Shown piece after piece: positions 11,527 through 18,730 of a stretch of 64,000 nt of DNA. Source of the stretch: Candidatus Fervidifonticultor secundus (GTDB lineage: Bacteria; Sysuimicrobiota; Sysuimicrobiia; Sysuimicrobiales; Humicultoraceae); contig JAVKIP010000008.1 of assembly GCA_031459385.1 (NCBI GenBank), forward strand, positions 64,001-128,000, in the 5' to 3' direction. The translations under genes and the position numbers were made by a program. Positions within the stretch are counted from its first letter, which is position 1. Each line of letters opens with the position of its first letter. The notes under the pieces are model-generated. The model did not search any database, had not been told where the DNA came from, and saw only the letters and a program-made list of their open reading frames with translations.

Positions 11527-13878
11527 CTACCTGGCCTCGGTCGCCCTCACTGCCCGGCGCGGTCGTTCCGCGTCCTGGAGGATCGTGCTGCGTCGGCTCA
11601 GGACCACCGCGCCGACGACGAGCGCGAGCGCGACGACGACCACGGCAAGACGCGCGAGACCGGGGAGGGGACGGATGACGACCGGCGCGATGAGGATTGC
11701 CACCAGGTTCATGACCTTGATCATCGGGTTCAGCGCCGGGCCTGCCGTGTCTTTGAGTGGATCTCCGACAGTATCCCCGATGACCCCGGCCTTGTGGGCA
11801 TCACTGCCCTTGCCCCCCAGGTAGCCATCCTCGATCTTCTTCTTGGCGTTATCCCAGGCGCCGCCGGTATTGGCCATGAAGACGGCCAGCAGCTGTGCGG
11901 TGAGGATGGCCCCGGCCAGGTAGGCCCCCAGGGCGCCGGCACCCAGGCCGAAGCCGACGAAGATGGGTACGCCGATCGCGATGATCCCGGGACCGAGTAA
12001 CTCCCGCTGGGCCGCCCGGGTCACGATGTCCACGCTGCGGGAGTAGTCCGGGCGCGCCTTCCCCTCCAGCAGCCCGGGGATCTCCCGGAACTGCCGGCGT
12101 ACCTCCTCCACGACCAGGAACGCGGACCGGCCGACGGCCCGGATGAGGAACGCGGAGACGAGGAACGGCACGGCGCCGCCGATCAGCAGGCCGATGAAGA
12201 CCAGCGGCAGGTTCACCTGGATGCCGACGTGGGACAGCAGGTCCCCGGCGCGATCGGCGCTGGCCGCTTGCAGCTCCTGCACCGTGACGAAGAGGCGCGC
12301 TTCGTCGATGAACGACCGAAACAGCGCGATCGCGGCGACCACCGCGGTGGCGATCGCGAACCCCTTGGTGAGCGCCTTGGTCGTGTTGCCGATCTGGTCC
12401 AGCCGCGCCACGATGCGGCCGGCCAGTGAGCCGCCCCGCTCGACGCCCGACATCTCGAAGATGCCGTTGGCGTTGTCCACGATCGGGCCGAAGGTGTCTT
12501 CTGCCAGGATGAACCCTGTCGTCGTGAGCAAGCCGAGGCCGGCCAGCGCGACGCCATAGGCCGCCAGCGCCACGCTGCCGCCGAAGATCGTGAACGACGC
12601 CACCAGCGTGACGGCGATGGCCAGGATGGCCCACACGGTGCTCTCCAGCCCGGCGCCCAACCCGGTGAGCAGCATCGTCGCTGGTCCGGTCTTGGTCGAG
12701 TAGGCGATCTCCGTCACCGGGCCGCGATCCGGATGGGTGAACAGCTCCGTCAACCAGCCGATGCCCAGGGCGAGGAGGATGCCGGTCAGCGTGGCGAGGA
12801 AGAAGCGGAAGTCCGGCATGCCGGTCTGGGGGTCCTTCAGGTAGAAGACGTTCACCAGCCCGAAGCCGGCCACGGAGAGGCCCGCCGCCGTCCAGAAGCC
12901 GACGTTGATGGGCCGCATCGGGTCACCGAGTTCCTCATCCCGGGCGCGCACCACCCAGGTCCCGATGAGCGAGCCGAAGACCCCGATGGCGCGCACCAGC
13001 AGCGGGTAGATGATCAGCTTCAGGGCGAAGCCGCCGGCGGCGGCGATTCCCCCATAGCGGGCGACGAAGGCCGGGTCGAGCAGCGTGGCGGCGCCGAGGA
13101 TGATCGCCGCCACCAGCGTCACCTCGTAGCTCTCGAAGACATCGGCGGCCATGCCGGCGCAGTCGCCGACGTTGTCGCCCACGTTGTCCGCGATGACGGC
13201 GGCGTTGCGCGGGTCGTCTTCGGGAATTCCGACCTCCACCTTGCCCACCAGGTCGGCGCCGACGTCCGCCGCCTTGGTGTAGATACCGCCGCCGACGCGC
13301 ATGAACGCCGCGACGAGCGAGCCGCCGAAGCCGAAACCCACCAGCACGCGCATCGCGTTCTCGCGGAACAGCATGAACATGATCGTCGCTCCCAGCAGGC
13401 CCAGCCCCACGGTGAACATCCCCGAGATCGTGCCCGCCTGGAAGGCGATCTGCAGGGCCTCGCGGTAGCTGCGCCGGGCAGCGTTCGCCACCCGAACGTT
13501 GCCGTGCACGGCCGAGGTCATCCCCACGTACCCGGCCCCGTAGCTGGCGACGCAGCCCAGCAGGAACGCCGCAGCGATACCAAGGGCCAGCTGCGGGCGG
13601 TCAGTGTAGATCGGCCGGTACAGCACGTAGAGTCCCACGGTCACGGCGATGATGAACAGCAGCATCGTCCGCAGCTGTCGGGTGAGGTAGGCCATCGCGC
13701 CTTCCTGGATCGCACTGGCGACTGCGACCATCGACGCCGGACCCGGGTCGCGGCTGAGTACCCGTCGCCGCAGGTACCAGCCGTATCCCAGCGCGAGGAT
13801 ACTGCTGGCCAGCACCAGCCAGAGCAGGAGCGTTTCCTGGGCGCCAAACTCAGGGAGTGTGATCGTCGCCTCGCTCAT
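11527..13878 (-). CDS. hppA: Membrane-bound ion-translocating pyrophosphatase, predicted K+-independent H+ pump
   Basis: GGGIYTKAADVGADLVGKVE, EDDPRN, DNVGDNVGD, GNTTKA, GDTVGDPLKDTAGP; RBS GGAGG before ATG. Confidence 0.95.
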   Translation of the reverse strand: MSEATITLPEFGAQETLLLWLVLASSILALGYGWYLRRRVLSRDPGPASMVAVASAIQEGAMAYLTRQLRTMLLFIIAVTVGLYVLYRPIYTDRPQLALGIAAAFLLGCVASYGAGYVGMTSAVHGNVRVANAARRSYREALQIAFQAGTISGMFTVGLGLLGATIMFMLFRENAMRVLVGFGFGGSLVAAFMRVGGGIYTKAADVGADLVGKVEVGIPEDDPRNAAVIADNVGDNVGDCAGMAADVFESYEVTLVAAIILGAATLLDPAFVARYGGIAAAGGFALKLIIYPLLVRAIGVFGSLIGTWVVRARDEELGDPMRPINVGFWTAAGLSVAGFGLVNVFYLKDPQTGMPDFRFFLATLTGILLALGIGWLTELFTHPDRGPVTEIAYSTKTGPATMLLTGLGAGLESTVWAILAIAVTLVASFTIFGGSVALAAYGVALAGLGLLTTTGFILAEDTFGPIVDNANGIFEMSGVERGGSLAGRIVARLDQIGNTTKALTKGFAIATAVVAAIALFRSFIDEARLFVTVQELQAASADRAGDLLSHVGIQVNLPLVFIGLLIGGAVPFLVSAFLIRAVGRSAFLVVEEVRRQFREIPGLLEGKARPDYSRSVDIVTRAAQRELLGPGIIAIGVPIFVGFGLGAGALGAYLAGAILTAQLLAVFMANTGGAWDNAKKKIEDGYLGGKGSDAHKAGVIGDTVGDPLKDTAGPALNPMIKVMNLVAILIAPVVIRPLPGLARLAVVVVALALVVGAVVLSRRSTILQDAERPRRAVRATEAR

Positions 13879-14320
13879 CGTGCCTCCACGCTGTCGCCGG
13901 GGCCGCGCGCCCGACGTGGCCTGCCAGGCATAGGTGCCCCGTGCGGCCCACGGTACCCTGAACCGGCGCACAGGACAAGGGCCAGGCGGCGCCGGGTGCG
14001 CGACATGCCGGAGACCGGGGGCTGGTCAAGACCGCCCCGGCGCTGCCGATCAGGAGCAACGCCGGGAGGGAGCGGGGTGGCCCAGCGGAACACGCGGCAT
14101 CCTGACTGGCGCTGCCGGCAGATCGCGCGCCCGCGCCGAGGTGAAAGGGTCGGGGGCGGGAACCGGATCGACGTCCTCCGGCACACCGTCGGCCCGGAGG
14201 GGACACCCCCGACCCTGACCTGACCGGCCGCATTCTTCATGGAACCCAGCCCATCCCCCTGTGGAACCCGAGGGTTTCCAGCCCTGGTGGGGCGTATTCA
14301 GTAGAAGAAGGAGACGAGAT

Positions 14321-14378
14321 TTCATGATCAATGAAGTTTTCAGAGATAAGGGGAGGAACTTCAGTGCCAGCGCAGAAG
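14321..14378 (+). promoter_or_regulatory. Candidate operator palindrome plus alternative-sigma promoter of the peptide gene
   Basis: TTCAT-N5-ATGAA at 14321-14335; AGGA(14354-57)-N17-GAAG(14375-78); AT-richer patch in a GC-rich window. Confidence 0.45.
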
Positions 14379-14486
14379 AAAGCCGCGACCCCCAGAGGTC
14401 GGACAGCCGCCGCGCCGCAGTCCTGCCGCCACGTCGCGCCATCTGGGGCCAGGGTACTAGGTCGGCAGACGAGGGAGGGGATCGTC

Positions 14487-14672
14487 GTGAGGACGCTCAT
14501 CGCACTGGTAGTGTCCGGGATCGTCCTGCTCGCGGGTGTGGCGGGTCCGGCCGTTCGGGTCGCCGGCCACGGCGACGGTGAGGTGCTGGGCGGTGCGATC
14601 GCCGGCCACGGCGACGGAGAGATCCTGGGCGGCGCGGTCGCCGGCCACGGGGACGGTGAGGTCCTGGGGTAG
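14487..14672 (+). CDS. 61-aa putative secreted propeptide with three tandem cores (candidate RRNPP-type signalling precursor)
   Basis: RBS GAGGGAGGGG at 14471-80, GTG start; MRTLIALVVSGIVLLAGVAGPAVR then VAGHGDGEVLGGA/IAGHGDGEILGGA/VAGHGDGEVLG-stop. Confidence 0.8.
   Translation: MRTLIALVVSGIVLLAGVAGPAVRVAGHGDGEVLGGAIAGHGDGEILGGAVAGHGDGEVLG
14559..14669 (+). repeat. In-frame 39-nt tandem repeat x3 (last copy truncated by stop)
   Basis: Units start at 14559, 14598 and 14637; differences are synonymous or Val/Ile. Confidence 0.95.
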
Positions 14673-14709
14673 GCTGCGTGCCCATCGTTTCCAGGAGGCA
14701 CGGCGGAAT

Positions 14710-16002
14710 GTGACGCTCGGCCAGAAGATCCGTCAGGCGCGCAAGGCGCGCGGCATCACGCAGCGCCAGCTGGCAGGCGGGGATCTGTCGGAGAGCTTCA
14801 TCAGCATGCTGGAGCACGACAAGGTCCGGCCGTCGCTGGAGACGCTGCGCATCCTGGCTGCGCGCCTGGGCACGCCCCTGGCCGAACTGCTTGAGGCCGA
14901 GCCGGCCCCGCCGGCGCGCGTCGTGGCCGCACTCGGGCGAGGCTCGGCCCTCCTGCGACAGCACCAGTTCACGCCCGCCCTCGAGGCGTTCCAGGACGCC
15001 GAGCGCGTTATCGGCCCGGACGCGCCGCTCGAGTATCACTTCCGCATCCAGATCGGCCTCGGGCAGGCCCTGGTGGGCCTGCGGCAGTTCGACCTGGCGC
15101 GTCAGGCCCTCGACCGCGCGCGCCTCCTGGCCGACTCCCTGGGCAGACCCGACCTGACCGCCCGGGTCGCCAGCGCCACCGGGTTCCTCCACTTGCGGCT
15201 GCGCGACTTCTCGGCGGCGCGCGATGCGTTCACGCGGGCGCTGTCGGCGATTCGATCCGTCGGGCCGGTCGACGCCGAGTTCGAGGGGGCGGTGCTGACC
15301 AACCTGGGGCGCACCTATTCCGAACTCGGGCTGCCGGCGCAAGCCCTCGACTGTTTCCAGGCGGCGCTGCAGCGGCTGGAGCCGCTGGGCGACGTGGGCG
15401 CGCTGGGCCTGCTGCACTTCAACCTGGGCGTGGCCCACGAGCGCCAGCGCGCGTTCGAGCAGGCCCGCGCGCACCTGGAACGCGCCGCGGTGCTCTTCGA
15501 AGCCCAGGAGAACCTCCGGCTCCTGGGCACGGTGAAGCGCAGCCTGGGCATCCTGCTCCTCAACCGCGGCCTGCCCGACCAGGGCGCGGAGGTGCTGGCC
15601 CAGAGTCTGGCCGTGGCGGAACGGCTGGCCGACGATGTGGGCCGCGCCCAGACGCTGACCGAGCTGGCGCGCGCATCGCTCATGCGCGGTGACCTGAAGA
15701 CGGCGCAGTCCCGCGCCGAGGAGGCGATCCGCCTGGCGGTGCGGCTCCAGGATCCCGCCGAGGCCGCGCGGGCTGAGGCGGTGATGGCCGTCGTGTGCTG
15801 GCGCGACGGCCGGCTGCCGGAGGCGGCCCGCCGGTTCGAGTACGCGCTCCAGCAGTTCGAGCGGCTGCACCTCGCCGGCGAGGTGGCCCGCACCAGCCGG
15901 GATTACGCGTTCCTGCTGATGGAGCGGGGAGAGGAGGCCGCCGCAGCGCGGCACTTCGCGCGAGCGTTCCGCGCGCAGGAGACGGCGGGCGTGGCGGACT
16001 GA
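14710..16002 (+). CDS. XRE-HTH + TPR transcriptional regulator (RRNPP-like peptide receptor), 430 aa
   Basis: RBS AGGAGG at 14693; LGQKIRQARKARGITQRQLA..SESFISMLE..RPSLETL HTH; TPR repeats such as VLTNLGRTYSELG and LHFNLGVAHERQ. Confidence 0.88.
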   Translation: MTLGQKIRQARKARGITQRQLAGGDLSESFISMLEHDKVRPSLETLRILAARLGTPLAELLEAEPAPPARVVAALGRGSALLRQHQFTPALEAFQDAERVIGPDAPLEYHFRIQIGLGQALVGLRQFDLARQALDRARLLADSLGRPDLTARVASATGFLHLRLRDFSAARDAFTRALSAIRSVGPVDAEFEGAVLTNLGRTYSELGLPAQALDCFQAALQRLEPLGDVGALGLLHFNLGVAHERQRAFEQARAHLERAAVLFEAQENLRLLGTVKRSLGILLLNRGLPDQGAEVLAQSLAVAERLADDVGRAQTLTELARASLMRGDLKTAQSRAEEAIRLAVRLQDPAEAARAEAVMAVVCWRDGRLPEAARRFEYALQQFERLHLAGEVARTSRDYAFLLMERGEEAAAARHFARAFRAQETAGVAD

Positions 16003-16021
16003 CGGCGTCGGACGTCGCGCG

Positions 16022-17257
16022 TTACGCGATGGAGAGCAGCGCGCGGCCGGCCTGCGCGCGGCCGGCACGCGACGCTTCCAGGGCGATCTCGAAGTAGTGG
16101 GCCGCGCGCTCCTGCTCGCTGCGAGCCTGATAGTGGCGGCCCAGCGCATCCGCCGCCTCGGCCAGTTCCAGCGCGCAGTCTTCTGTTCCCAGCCGGGCCA
16201 CCGCGTCCTCCAGCAGGGGCAGCGCGTCGTCGGGTCGGCCCAGCGCGAGCAGCGCACGGCCCACGACCGCGGCCGCCCTGGCCGCTGCCTGGGCATCCCC
16301 GGCCGCCTGGGCCAGCGCGCGGGCGTGCTGCGCCGCCTCCAGCGCCGCCGGGGCGCTCCCGGCTGCGAGCTGCACGCGCCCCAGGTGAATCAGGGCTTCC
16401 ACCTCGGTCCGCCGGTCGCCGGCCTCCTGCGCGGTCACCCGGGCGCGCTCCAGCGCCTCCAGGGCTTCCTTCGTCGCCTCCTGCCCGTACGCGAGGAGGC
16501 CGAAGCCCAGCAGCGCCCGGCCCCGCAGGGCGCCCAGGCCATAGCGCGCGGCCAGGCGCGCCGCGGTCTCCAGCCGGCGACGCGCCTGCCTGACGTCACC
16601 CCGGTGCAGCAGGGCCATCGCGTGCGCGAGCAGCAGGCGCACGACGAGATCCGGCTGGCGGGCGGGACTGCGCAGGCGTCCCAGCGCATCGCGGAACGTC
16701 GCCGCAGCAGAGGCGGCGTCGCCACGGCGCATCGCCAGCAATCCCGCCACAAGGTCGCGCCGCGCGCGGACGCGCGCGCCCAGGCCACCCGCGAACGCAT
16801 CCAGTTCCTGCAGCAACGCGCGCGCCCGCTCCAGCTGGCCGCCATCGATCTCCAGTTCGGCCAGCGCCAGCACCGCGTCGGCCCGCTGCGGCGCCCAGTC
16901 ACCGGTCGCGGCCAGCTCGGCACTCAACTCCAGCGCGCGGCGGGCCAGGGCCACGTCCTGGCGGGCGGCGAGCTCGCGCGCCCACGCCACCAGACCTTCC
17001 AGTGCGGCCAGGTGCTGGTCCCGGGCGTCTCCGGCGATGGCCGAGAGCGAGGTGTGCAGCCGCCTGGTGAGGTACCGGAGCGTATCGAGGGACGGGTCGG
17101 CGAAGCCCCCCTCGAGCTGACTGATGAAACTCTTGGTATAGTCGGGGCCGGCCAGGTCAGACTGCGTCATGCCCAGCTCGCGCCGCCGCTGCCGGATGCG
17201 ACGGCCGATGGGCGCCTCGTCGGGCCGGACGTGTCGGCGCGAAGGATGCCGTCCCAT
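16022..17257 (-). CDS. XRE-HTH + TPR-like transcriptional regulator, 411 aa
   Basis: IGRRIRQRRRELGMTQSDLA..TKSFISQLE..DPSLDTL HTH followed by Ala/Leu-rich helical repeats. Confidence 0.85.
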   Translation of the reverse strand: MGRHPSRRHVRPDEAPIGRRIRQRRRELGMTQSDLAGPDYTKSFISQLEGGFADPSLDTLRYLTRRLHTSLSAIAGDARDQHLAALEGLVAWARELAARQDVALARRALELSAELAATGDWAPQRADAVLALAELEIDGGQLERARALLQELDAFAGGLGARVRARRDLVAGLLAMRRGDAASAAATFRDALGRLRSPARQPDLVVRLLLAHAMALLHRGDVRQARRRLETAARLAARYGLGALRGRALLGFGLLAYGQEATKEALEALERARVTAQEAGDRRTEVEALIHLGRVQLAAGSAPAALEAAQHARALAQAAGDAQAAARAAAVVGRALLALGRPDDALPLLEDAVARLGTEDCALELAEAADALGRHYQARSEQERAAHYFEIALEASRAGRAQAGRALLSIA

Positions 17258-17379
17258 GGCGATCAGGGCCTCAGGTTGATTACACCACAACCGGACGCGC
17301 GGAGGAACCCGCGGTGGGGCGTGGCGCTGCGGCCTCACCGCCCGCACTGGCCACGAGGCCCCACGGGGCCCGCGTCGCC

Positions 17380-17409
17380 TTGACACTGTTGCGGCGCGCC
17401 TGCTATACG
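17380..17409 (+). promoter_or_regulatory. Sigma70-type promoter of hom-thrC-lysC
   Basis: TTGACA(17380-85)-N18-TATACG with extended -10 TGn. Confidence 0.6.
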
Positions 17410-17425
17410 GAGGGCATCATGCGCG

Positions 17426-18730
17426 GTGCGACCGACACCTGTGGCTTCGCCTGACGCCTGCCGCGTGGGCCTGCTCGGGCTTGGCACCGTCGGCAGCGCC
17501 GTGGCGCGCCTGCTGTCGGAGCGTGCCGACGAGCTGGCGCGGCAGGCCGGCGTGCCCATCGTGCTCCACCGCGTGGCGGTGGCGCACCCTGAGCGCGCCC
17601 GCGCCGTCTCGCTCCCGCCCGGGACGCTGGTCGGCGACGCGCGGGCCGTGGTGGCCGATCCCGCGGTGGCCGTGGTGGTCGAGGTGATGGGGGGCATCGA
17701 GCCCGCCCGCTCGTACCTGCTGGAGGCGCTGGCGGGCGGCAAGGCCGTGGTCACCGCCAACAAGCAGCTGATGTCCACGCGCGGCGACGAGCTGCACGCG
17801 GCCGCCGAAGCCGCCGGCGTCGACCTCTGCTTCGAGGCCAGCGTCGCGGGCGGCCTCCCCATCATCAAGACGATCCGCGAGGCGCTGGCAGGGAACCGGA
17901 TCCGCCAGCTGCTGGGAATCATCAATGGCACGACGAACTTCATCCTCACGCGGATGACGCGCGACGGCGTCTCGTTCGGCGAAGCCCTTGCCGACGCGCA
18001 GCAGCGGGGCTTCGCGGAGGCCGACCCGACGGACGACATCGACGGCCACGACGCGGCGGCGAAGCTGGCCATCCTGGCGTCTGTGGCCTTCGGCTGCCGG
18101 GTGACCAGCGCCGACGTCTACCGGGAAGGGATCGGCGAGGTCACCCCGCGCATGATCGCCTACAGCCGAGAGCTCGGCTACGTCGTGAAGCCGCTGGCCA
18201 TCGCGCGCAACGACGGCGGCGCCGTCGAAGTCCGCGTCCATCCTGCGCTCCTGCCGGCACACCACCCGCTGGCCGGCGTGGGCGACGAGGTGAACGCGGT
18301 GCTGATCGAGGCCGATCCGGTTGGCCTGCTCATGCTCGAAGGGCCGGGGGCCGGCGGCGGCCCCACGGCCAGCGCCGTGCTGGGCGACGTGGTGGATGTC
18401 GCGCGCAACCTGCGGGCCGGCGCGGCGGGGCGCCTGGGAGGCATGCCCCGGCGCAGGCTGCCGCTCCGCGAGGTCGCCGACACCGTGCTTCCGTACTGCG
18501 TCGCCATGGAGGTGGCCGACCGTCCGGGAGTCTTCGCGCGCGTCGCGGCCGCGTTCGGCGACGAGCAGGTCAGCATCGCGTCCATCGTGCAGAAGAGCCG
18601 GGGTGTGACCGCCGATGTCGTGTTGGTGACCCACGAGGCGCCGGAGGCCGCCATGCGGCGCGTGATAGGCCGCCTGCGCCAGCTGGACGTCGTGCGGTCG
18701 GTACACGCCGCGCTCCGCATCGCTGCCTAG
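17426..18730 (+). CDS. hom: Homoserine dehydrogenase with C-terminal ACT domain
   Basis: GLLGLGTVG, VVTANK, FEASVAGGLP, GIINGTTNFIL, GFAEADP, GPGAGGGPTASAV. Confidence 0.95.
   Translation: MRPTPVASPDACRVGLLGLGTVGSAVARLLSERADELARQAGVPIVLHRVAVAHPERARAVSLPPGTLVGDARAVVADPAVAVVVEVMGGIEPARSYLLEALAGGKAVVTANKQLMSTRGDELHAAAEAAGVDLCFEASVAGGLPIIKTIREALAGNRIRQLLGIINGTTNFILTRMTRDGVSFGEALADAQQRGFAEADPTDDIDGHDAAAKLAILASVAFGCRVTSADVYREGIGEVTPRMIAYSRELGYVVKPLAIARNDGGAVEVRVHPALLPAHHPLAGVGDEVNAVLIEADPVGLLMLEGPGAGGGPTASAVLGDVVDVARNLRAGAAGRLGGMPRRRLPLREVADTVLPYCVAMEVADRPGVFARVAAAFGDEQVSIASIVQKSRGVTADVVLVTHEAPEAAMRRVIGRLRQLDVVRSVHAALRIAA

Follow-up and report, generated by a model that had tools for sequence, protein, structure and literature searches.

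A candidate peptide-signalling cassette analogous to RRNPP systems in a probably diderm bacterium of the Sysuimicrobiota

Is peptide signalling of the RRNPP kind confined to the Bacillota and their mobile elements? The question is raised by two adjacent genes in the genome of Candidatus Fervidifonticultor secundus, an uncultured bacterium of hot springs (assembly GCA_031459385.1, contig JAVKIP010000008.1), found in a stretch of 64,000 nucleotides (nt; contig positions 64,001 to 128,000, forward strand) that is called the window below and is numbered from its first letter. The pair consists of a gene for a 61-amino-acid (aa) propeptide and, directly downstream, a gene for a protein with a helix-turn-helix (HTH) domain and tetratricopeptide repeats (TPRs), here called the receptor. 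We consider it fairly probable that these two genes make up a self-contained cassette for peptide signalling, operating in a diderm member of CSP1-3/Sysuimicrobiota as RRNPP systems do in Bacillota, and either convergent with those systems or deeply related to them. An RRNPP-analogous circuit had been proposed in an initial annotation of this DNA; as far as computation reaches the proposal is supported, and none of the computable outcomes that would have refuted it came up. In the portions of PMC10075063, PMC9765709 and PMC12700828 drawn on here, quorum sensing by re-imported peptides and TPR receptors is treated as a trait of Bacillota and mobile elements, and the cited portion of a 2026 review (PMC13419125) still assigns peptide signals to Gram-positive species. 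Our literature searches returned no description of an RRNPP-like cassette outside the Bacillota; one of these searches, which ranked papers by the number of terms matched, is a weak negative.

The pair has the following parts:

14473–14480, plus strand: Shine-Dalgarno (SD) sequence of the propeptide gene, GGGAGGGG, 6 nt ahead of the GTG at 14487
14487–14672, plus strand: propeptide gene, from GTG 14487 to TAG 14670–14672, 61 aa
14487–14564, plus strand: signal-peptide-like residues 1–26 of the propeptide (rule-based)
14565–14588, 14604–14627 and 14643–14666, plus strand: three 8-residue units GHGDGE[VI]L, separated by the spacers GGAIA and GGAVA
14693–14698, plus strand: SD sequence of the receptor gene, AGGAGG, 11 nt ahead of the GTG at 14710
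14710–16002, plus strand: receptor gene with a GTG start, 430 aa, encoding an XRE-type HTH (residues 3–60) and nine TPRs (residues 67–426)

All five features on which RRNPP_detector relies were found here, namely a small propeptide, a Sec signal (identified by rule), a receptor of 250–500 aa, TPRs and direct neighbourhood of the two genes. The cited text of PMC10075063 describes this signature as a propeptide of 10–100 aa, a Sec/SPI signal, a receptor of about 250–500 aa, matches to TPR hidden Markov models and neighbouring genes.

The propeptide begins with a basic M-R followed by about 20 uncharged, mostly hydrophobic residues and ends in the repeats, which supply GHGDGEVL twice and GHGDGEIL once; at the DNA level, Tandem Repeats Finder reports a 39-nt tandem unit present 2.8 times at 14560–14668 (88% matches, score 176). 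The 61-aa frame with its strong ribosome-binding site, basic and hydrophobic N-terminus and repeated C-terminus is present just as it had been annotated. In searches of Pfam and NCBIfam the propeptide matched no family. The table of open reading frames (ORFs) lists only a longer frame of 113 aa from ATG 14331 (14331–14672), of which the peptide is the tail, as the annotation had also pointed out. The 61-aa frame from GTG 14487 is the better reading, because ATG 14331 sits inside a conserved non-coding palindrome (see below) and because the orthologues begin at the same M-[RK] position. The warning that pipelines could miss the peptide gene held in part: only six relatives of the peptide (61–80 aa) have been called as proteins in a collection of 5.8 billion, one as 'hypothetical protein' and the others nameless, so that none of the six has a functional name.

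For comparison between loci, a stricter parser was run on the window together with the 40 loci closest to it whose upstream ORF is complete, and it recovered 39 peptides (L021 and L056 were missed, though their peptide ORFs are visible in the upstream DNA). These orthologous peptides are 36–82 aa long, and all 39 have a K or R among the first five residues and an uncharged run of at least 11 residues; an SD-like site lies within 16 nt of the start in 38 of the 39 genes, and Ala stands at position −1 of the first core in 38 of the 39 peptides. By these rule-based measures the suspected signal peptide is conserved. A small-x-Ala site directly precedes the core in 24 of the 39 (for example AFA followed by GHGGGELL or GRGD.DSFG), the stop codon follows right behind an 8-residue unit (...ELL or ...DLL) in 8 of the 39 ORFs, and three 8-residue units abut without a linker in L052 and L055. 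Since signal-peptidase site, stop codon and unit length, three independent features, bracket the same octapeptide, the sequences point to G-H-G-[DG]-[GA]-E-[LV]-L as the mature unit. The core occurs once in 24 of the 39 peptides and two to four times in the other 15, five times in L021 and at least seven times in L075, and the changes in copy number between loci are all in frame.

The pair was then followed through the phylum. The collection searched comprised 94 genomes, all from one order, which fits the small candidate phylum CSP1-3/Sysuimicrobiota; family tallies over these genomes take in G016 and G024, both flagged as unpublished. Receptor homologues (E ≤ 1e-20) were found in 79 of the 94 genomes, with up to four matches per genome, and were distributed over the families as 32 of 33 genomes in f1, 1 of 1 in f2, 21 of 22 in f3, 23 of 23 in f4, 0 of 12 in f5, 1 of 1 in f6 and 0 of 1 in f7. 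Upstream DNA was examined for 89 receptor matches. Among the best 29 (46–75% identity), a peptide ORF lies upstream in all 27 assessable loci; L035 (from G024) and L039 were unassessable, having no upstream sequence, and L040, one of the 27, comes from G016. Where at least 357 nt of upstream sequence were available (26 loci), our ORF rule picked out an ORF with the shared motifs in 25, and the 26th (L047) was recognised by eye, as was a partial ORF with at least five in-frame repeats in L020, whose contig is cut 207 nt upstream. The 13 loci aligned initially are apparently the same records as 13 of these 29, because their peptides are identical, and were counted once. A peptide ORF was also present in 14 of the next 14 matches (44–50% identity, family f3), in 13 of 26 matches at 33–40% identity (mostly f4) and in 7 of 20 at 30–36% identity. 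The closest receptor homologues thus do have the adjacent small signal-peptide ORFs that the annotation led one to expect, and the peptide gene lies upstream of the receptor, as described there, in every locus where it was found. Applied to 3000 random 450-nt stretches of the same genome, the rule for signal-peptide-like ORFs gives a positive in 530 (17.7%), and in 290 when the ORF end is required within 150 nt; because it fires so often, the argument for conservation rests on shared motifs and organisation and not on the rule. The flanking genes differ, with an H+-pyrophosphatase (H+-PPase) in the window and a flavin reductase, a thioredoxin-like protein, a glyoxalase, an amidase or GerE elsewhere, so that the conserved unit is the two-gene pair itself. 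In a paralogue subgroup, four of the 20 matches at 30–36% identity (L093, L095, L096 and L105), a gene for a cupredoxin-like exported protein of about 150 aa, its fold judged by sequence motifs, stands upstream in the peptide's place.

How the peptides are distributed over the receptors can be read from their cores. Listed by receptor clade, the core classes are GHG[DG]GE.., G.GD.D.FG, GDDNG.. and GQDG.GQ; a G.GD.D[SF][FY]G core occurs in nine loci, GDG.IEVI is another core, the f4 cores are PPLVP.GDDNG.. repeats of 18 residues, PLVPF(D)GQDGSGQ repeats make up a further class, and so do GDNGPDGNG and AGDVGPGDS pairs. On a quick maximum-likelihood tree of 91 receptors, supported only by the Shimodaira-Hasegawa-like approximate likelihood ratio test (SH-aLRT), eight peptide labels need 18 changes versus a mean of 56.5 after shuffling, and the G.GD.D.FG class is one clade (99% SH-aLRT). 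Some of the labels, which were assigned by regular expression, are doubtful: L031 is labelled E though its peptide is of the GDG.IE type, and L071 and L088 bear the same label although no signal-peptide ORF is clear there. Judged from these sequences, peptide class follows receptor clade, in the sense of clustering and not of co-evolution, because relatives share labels. Several cassettes with different peptides occur within single genomes. The genome under study has a second cassette on its contig C2 (about 84,930–86,491, plus strand), in which a 43-aa signal-peptide-like ORF with a Gly/Asp-rich end lies about 170 nt upstream of a receptor paralogue of 30% identity, and it also has two receptor paralogues without a peptide gene. 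In the f4 loci L075, L076, L077, L072 and L080, three to at least seven tandem 18-residue units VYG.PPLVP.GDDNG.. are encoded 200–280 nt upstream of the receptor. The G.GD.D.FG-class loci L016, L017 and L018 have an extra conserved block, GTCTAAAAA...TCGTCGATAAC, directly ahead of the SD sequence (alignment columns about 401–435).

The receptor gene begins 37 nt behind the propeptide gene on the same strand (15–149 nt in the 39 parsed loci), and its product matches the Pfam families HTH_3 (residues 7–60, E 1.8e-11), TPR_12 (E 4.4e-30), TPR_2 (E 2.8e-20) and TPR_1 (E 4e-18), with TNLG at residues 197–200 and FNLG at residues 237–240; the annotated 430-aa XRE-HTH and TPR protein with Asn-containing TPR helices is borne out in all these respects. 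The MTLG start is kept in 13 of 13 orthologues, in which N238 and N268 are invariant, N198 is nearly so, and the HTH recognition region (SESFISMLEHD.VRPS) does not vary. The AlphaFold2 model computed from the alignment of these 13 orthologues (mean predicted local distance difference test score, pLDDT, 92.8) has a five-helix HTH at residues 3–60 and 18 helices at residues 67–426. Aligned with VIA-align, the model gave Z 32.8 with LGN, Z 32.4 with RapI (354 residues, root-mean-square deviation 3.5), Z of about 29 with RapJ and with the Rap-pheromone complexes of phage phi3T, Z 28.9 with apo NprR (5dbk_B; 349 residues, model 66–424 on chain 67–418) and Z 25.6 with NprR-NprX, and in a Foldseek search of the PDB the TPR domains of LGN/Pins came out on top (E about 1e-11), ahead of Rap proteins and PlcR. 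As modelled, the receptor is of NprR-type build and its TPR domain is a superhelix of the peptide-binding type. Similarity to RapI and NprR was found as a fold match over the whole TPR domain, but not at the level of sequence profiles, which place generic TPR proteins first. As the profiles rank in this way and the Rap/NprR fold match ties with LGN, membership of the RRNPPA family is not established; sequence and model comparison neither shows nor excludes common descent with RRNPPA receptors, and 'analogous' is the apt word for the relation to RRNPP. A complex prediction of receptor residues 62–430 with propeptide residues 27–61 scored 0.01 against a mark of 0.32 and, having been run without controls, is no evidence either way.

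The DNA ahead of the peptide gene contains a block with the features of an operator, whose parts carry no strand assignment:

14296–14377: operator-like block, 25 invariant columns in the alignment of 14 loci upstream of the peptide gene
14296–14302: half-site, invariant columns
14321–14335 (extended to 14338, GTT next): palindrome TTCA-N7-TGAA, invariant columns
14354–14363: AGGAACTTCA, invariant columns
14370–14377: GCGCAGAA, with the invariant G..GAA at 14372–14377

AACTTCA and TGAAGTT are reverse complements, and the block can be described as one 15-bp palindrome with two outlying half-sites. The exact palindrome precedes the peptide gene in 7 of 14 f3 loci compared with 1 of 46 loci of more distant paralogues, and the genome under study contains six exact copies, of which the other five lie inside long ORFs. 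An invariant HTH recognition region together with an invariant palindrome is the pattern that autoregulation predicts, and by this pattern the receptor would bind the block. A promoter scan found no sigma-70-like promoter in 13900–16300, and no plus-strand terminator was found by scan between the propeptide and receptor genes. The consensus of extracytoplasmic function (ECF)-type promoters has a spacer of 16–17 nt; a reading of GGAAC...CGTC as such a promoter was rejected, its spacer being about 12 nt.

On the far side of this block lies a further element:

14125–14237, minus strand: structured RNA-like element with a 67-nt core (14148–14214) that is closed by a G+C-rich stem of 12 bp and is invariant inside

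Read on the plus strand, the closing stem has six cells with C-A mismatches, whereas on the minus strand G-U replaces C-A and each of the 12 sequences keeps all 12 stem pairs; the covariation term is −1.02 for the minus strand versus +0.33 for the plus strand. Because of this asymmetry between G-U and C-A, the RNA would be a minus-strand transcript, divergent from the peptide gene, and its sequence makes it a candidate non-coding RNA of the cassette. The element is single copy in its own genome, and a covariance model made from these aligned sequences found it in 19 of the 94 genomes, all of family f1, with one strong match each and a second, weak match in two of them. Element and receptor share a contig in 16 cases, and in every one of them the element is on the opposite strand, 419–817 nt ahead of the receptor start; it is restricted to the closest receptor clade. 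No Rfam family matched in 13700–14800 at E ≤ 1, and no tRNA or tmRNA was found in 13000–18000.

The host bears directly on the opening question. Its genome (3.30 Mb in 59 contigs, 71.9% G+C) encodes Omp85/BamA (132 bits) and LpxC (281 bits), and the control genomes positive for these families were all diderm, so that the host is most likely a diderm of the lipopolysaccharide (LPS) type, as judged from its genes. The 13 closest receptor loci, from species-representative genomes, belong to metagenome-assembled genomes titled Armatimonadota bacterium, Candidatus Fervidifonticultor, Ca. Nitrosymbiomonas or 'bacterium', and the cited text of PMC11604079 names Fervidifonticultor as a genus of Sysuimicrobiota (CSP1-3). 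The host is outside the Bacillota, a placement that the annotation had ventured only as possible and that these titles and the two envelope genes uphold, and a diderm of the Sysuimicrobiota falls outside the RRNPPA host range in print, that is, Bacillota and mobile elements. The cassette is chromosomal and not viral: searches with the receptor returned two HTH-level matches among viral contigs, with no phage relative, and two Nostoc TPR proteins among plasmids, with no plasmid relative. No RNA dataset is listed that covers 14200–16100 of the window; the six DNA datasets listed are hot-spring or subsurface metagenomes, and the window may derive from one of them.

We infer a circuit in which the 61-aa precursor would be exported by Sec and its signal peptide removed after an Ala, whereupon extracytoplasmic proteases would cut behind the Ala preceding each repeat and yield up to three acidic peptides of about eight residues and 0.8 kDa, GHGDGE[VI]L. 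The peptide would build up outside the cell or in the periplasm, be taken up by an ABC importer of the oligopeptide type and bind the concave groove of the receptor's nine-TPR domain, and the HTH would in response occupy the TTCA-N7-TGAA block, which separates the peptide gene from the divergent structured RNA, to a different extent. The outcome would be autoregulation, possibly with control of the divergent RNA as an output. The proposed route of export and import is possible, because the genome has two signal peptidase I genes and 54 genes for SBP_bac_5 (OppA/DppA-type) solute-binding proteins in 3.3 Mb, none of the latter linked to the cassette. Fifty-four such genes are an unusually large repertoire for peptide uptake. 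According to the cited text of PMC11604079, CSP1-3 members express genes for the assimilation of peptides and amino acids.

Set beside described systems, the cassette shares with NprR-NprX the build and size of the receptor, an XRE-type HTH followed by nine TPRs, and a co-oriented gene for a small propeptide of the Sec type, but no specific sequence relationship was detected, the peptide gene lies upstream, the peptide comes in several copies and the host, a diderm, stands outside the Bacillota. In NprR-NprX of the Bacillus cereus group the propeptide gene lies downstream of the receptor gene; of the features that define the NprR subfamily, the HTH with nine TPRs is present here and a downstream propeptide gene is not. 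Proteins of the Rap family lack an HTH and exert their effect on protein partners. The Rap-Phr systems of phages phi3T and phi105 resemble the cassette in that one precursor holds several pheromone copies and that the TPR domain matches RapI, and differ in that the cassette's receptor has an HTH, the copies reach at least seven and no phage or plasmid relative was found. Tandemly duplicated Rap-Phr propeptides, as described in the cited text of PMC11343458, release several pheromone copies by extracellular proteolysis. PlcR-PapR likewise has an HTH-TPR regulator, and PlcR is the only RRNPP sequence in the PDB that matches at E < 1e-5 (6.2e-8), but the match is confined to the HTH and linker (residues 3–88) and PlcR has five TPRs versus nine here. 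PlcR recognises a palindromic box, and its activator is a fragment from the C-terminus of a propeptide that the cell exports. HTH-5TPR and HTH-9TPR folds are distinguished in the cited text of PMC12700828.

The arbitrium system of Bacillus phages (AimR-AimP-aimX) offers an HTH-TPR receptor and an exported propeptide, and here too an RNA-like element neighbours the cassette, with the operator-like block between; aimX is a non-coding RNA. The cassette is unlike arbitrium in being chromosomal, in its gene order and in that its RNA-like element, predicted from sequence, occurs only in the closest clade (the 19 genomes mentioned above). The cited text of PMC6458997 describes arbitrium as an HTH-TPR receptor with an exported propeptide and a neighbouring regulated output. 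By sequence profile and by fold, the TPR domain is best matched by LGN/Pins, which is eukaryotic and lacks both an HTH and a cognate exported peptide. LGN binds extended peptides in its concave groove via an Asn ladder. As LGN/Pins matches best, the TPR fold of the cassette is a generic peptide-binding superhelix. New with respect to the described systems are the diderm host outside the Bacillota, the peptide gene in first place, a generic TPR_12 domain, a new peptide family and, in one clade, a divergent RNA-like element.

Several observations weigh against an RRNPP-like cassette. The fold does not single out RRNPP, because LGN ties with RapI. The profile of the orthologues, run against PDB sequences, has generic TPR proteins at the top (engineered TPRs, Pins, LGN, AfsR and kinesin light chain); the PlcR match in this search covers only HTH and linker, and Rap105 reaches merely E 3e-4. 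RNPP_C (PF18768) had no match in the receptor or the genome, the model being a narrow one, positive in a single genome among 14 controls. Only one of 15 discriminating receptor columns switches with the D/G position of the peptide, and it is located in the HTH. Half of the distant paralogues have no peptide ORF within 600 nt. A search of the whole genome for exact palindromes and half-site clusters found no second intergenic operator-like site, and because the motif has no further intergenic copy no regulon is visible. The signal peptide reaches the periplasm only, passage of the outer membrane in both directions is unexplained, and the evidence as a whole consists of sequence and models.

The same evidence has to be held against other explanations. 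It is unlikely, but worth serious attention, that the exported repeat peptide itself does some work outside the cytoplasm, for instance by binding cations, serving the envelope or acting in antagonism, while the HTH-TPR protein only regulates transcription of its gene and responds to another cue. His, Asp, Glu and Gly abound in the units, the very long arrays (at least seven units of 18 residues) resemble a bulk product more than a signal, and TPR regulators with other ligands are common, AfsR and NsdA being among the best profile matches of the receptor. Yet the peptide gene is strictly paired with one receptor gene, peptide class tracks receptor clade, there are several orthogonal pairs per genome, the unit is as short as eight residues, and no genes for processing, modification or transport are conserved nearby; the putative metal-binding residues moreover differ between classes, GDDNGPG and GQDGSGQ containing no His at all. 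That the locus encodes a multi-core precursor of a ribosomally synthesised and post-translationally modified peptide (RiPP), with the TPR protein as pathway regulator or recognition factor, we regard as highly improbable: repeated core motifs are typical of some RiPP precursors and NCBIfam gives a match to a cyclophane-RiPP TPR protein, but at 33 bits this is far under the cut-off of 1125, no modifying enzyme or dedicated exporter is conserved beside the pair, and the precursors bear Sec-type signal peptides and not RiPP leaders.

It is hardly credible that the small ORF is untranslated and that its repeats are regulatory or structural DNA in the receptor leader. A G+C content of 72% does make open frames and Ala/Leu/Val-rich translations easy, as the frequent firing of the ORF rule in random stretches illustrates; set against this, the frame, the SD sequence, the n-h-c organisation and the stop are kept across receptors of 45–50% identity while the nucleotides diverge, the copy number changes only in frame, and the six relatives called as proteins count on the same side. 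A cell-autonomous loop, in which the producer re-imports its own periplasmic peptide and thereby reports on secretion, periplasmic proteolysis or uptake capacity and not on density, seems improbable to us; the diderm envelope indicated by Omp85 and LpxC, a Sec signal that by itself delivers only to the periplasm and the very large importer repertoire speak for such a loop, and no result obtained here separates it from true quorum sensing. We retain the cassette that works like RRNPP as the reading set out at the start.

A wider statement, which we hold tentatively and rate a little short of even, is that gene-encoded peptide pheromones sensed by cytoplasmic HTH-TPR receptors are no speciality of the Firmicutes: a whole phylum of LPS-type diderms would use cassette families, with up to four receptor paralogues per genome and multi-copy precursors of 8-residue peptides, and with a divergent small RNA as output in one clade, and the receptors would be either an independent invention or the missing RRNPPA outgroup. 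If the cassette reading is true, the known range of this signalling logic becomes wider, the question arises how peptides cross an outer membrane both ways, and the receptors could supply a remote outgroup for rooting the RRNPPA tree; an outgroup obtained via remote structural homologues would help with this, a need named in the cited text of PMC12700828. The case is directly testable, with an 8-mer ligand that can be synthesised, a soluble 430-aa receptor and a defined candidate operator. Signal peptides might also aid the growing of members of the phylum, of which enrichments exist (PMC11604079, in its cited text).

In the window the pair is flanked by the divergent H+-PPase gene, a convergent second HTH-TPR gene, and genes for a homoserine dehydrogenase and a pyridoxal phosphate (PLP)-dependent enzyme. 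The H+-PPase gene (hppA) was considered as a cassette partner and rejected, since it adjoins the cassette in none of the 42 other locus files. The second HTH-TPR gene is placed as follows:

16022–17257, minus strand: second HTH-TPR paralogue, convergent with the receptor gene; TPR_12 E 1.1e-10, HTH_3 E 2e-4, start codon uncertain

No small ORF was found upstream of this gene. It could be an orphan receptor or a partner, it is highly diverged and sits on a very long branch of the receptor tree, and it is also found downstream in 10 of the 42 related locus files, many of which are short and 13 of which are duplicates. Look-alike clusters of about 430 aa with HTH_3 and TPR_12 domains were seen in the ESM Atlas, where gene neighbourhoods are not readable; their commonest labels are Dormiibacterota, Actinomycetota and Sysuimicrobiota.

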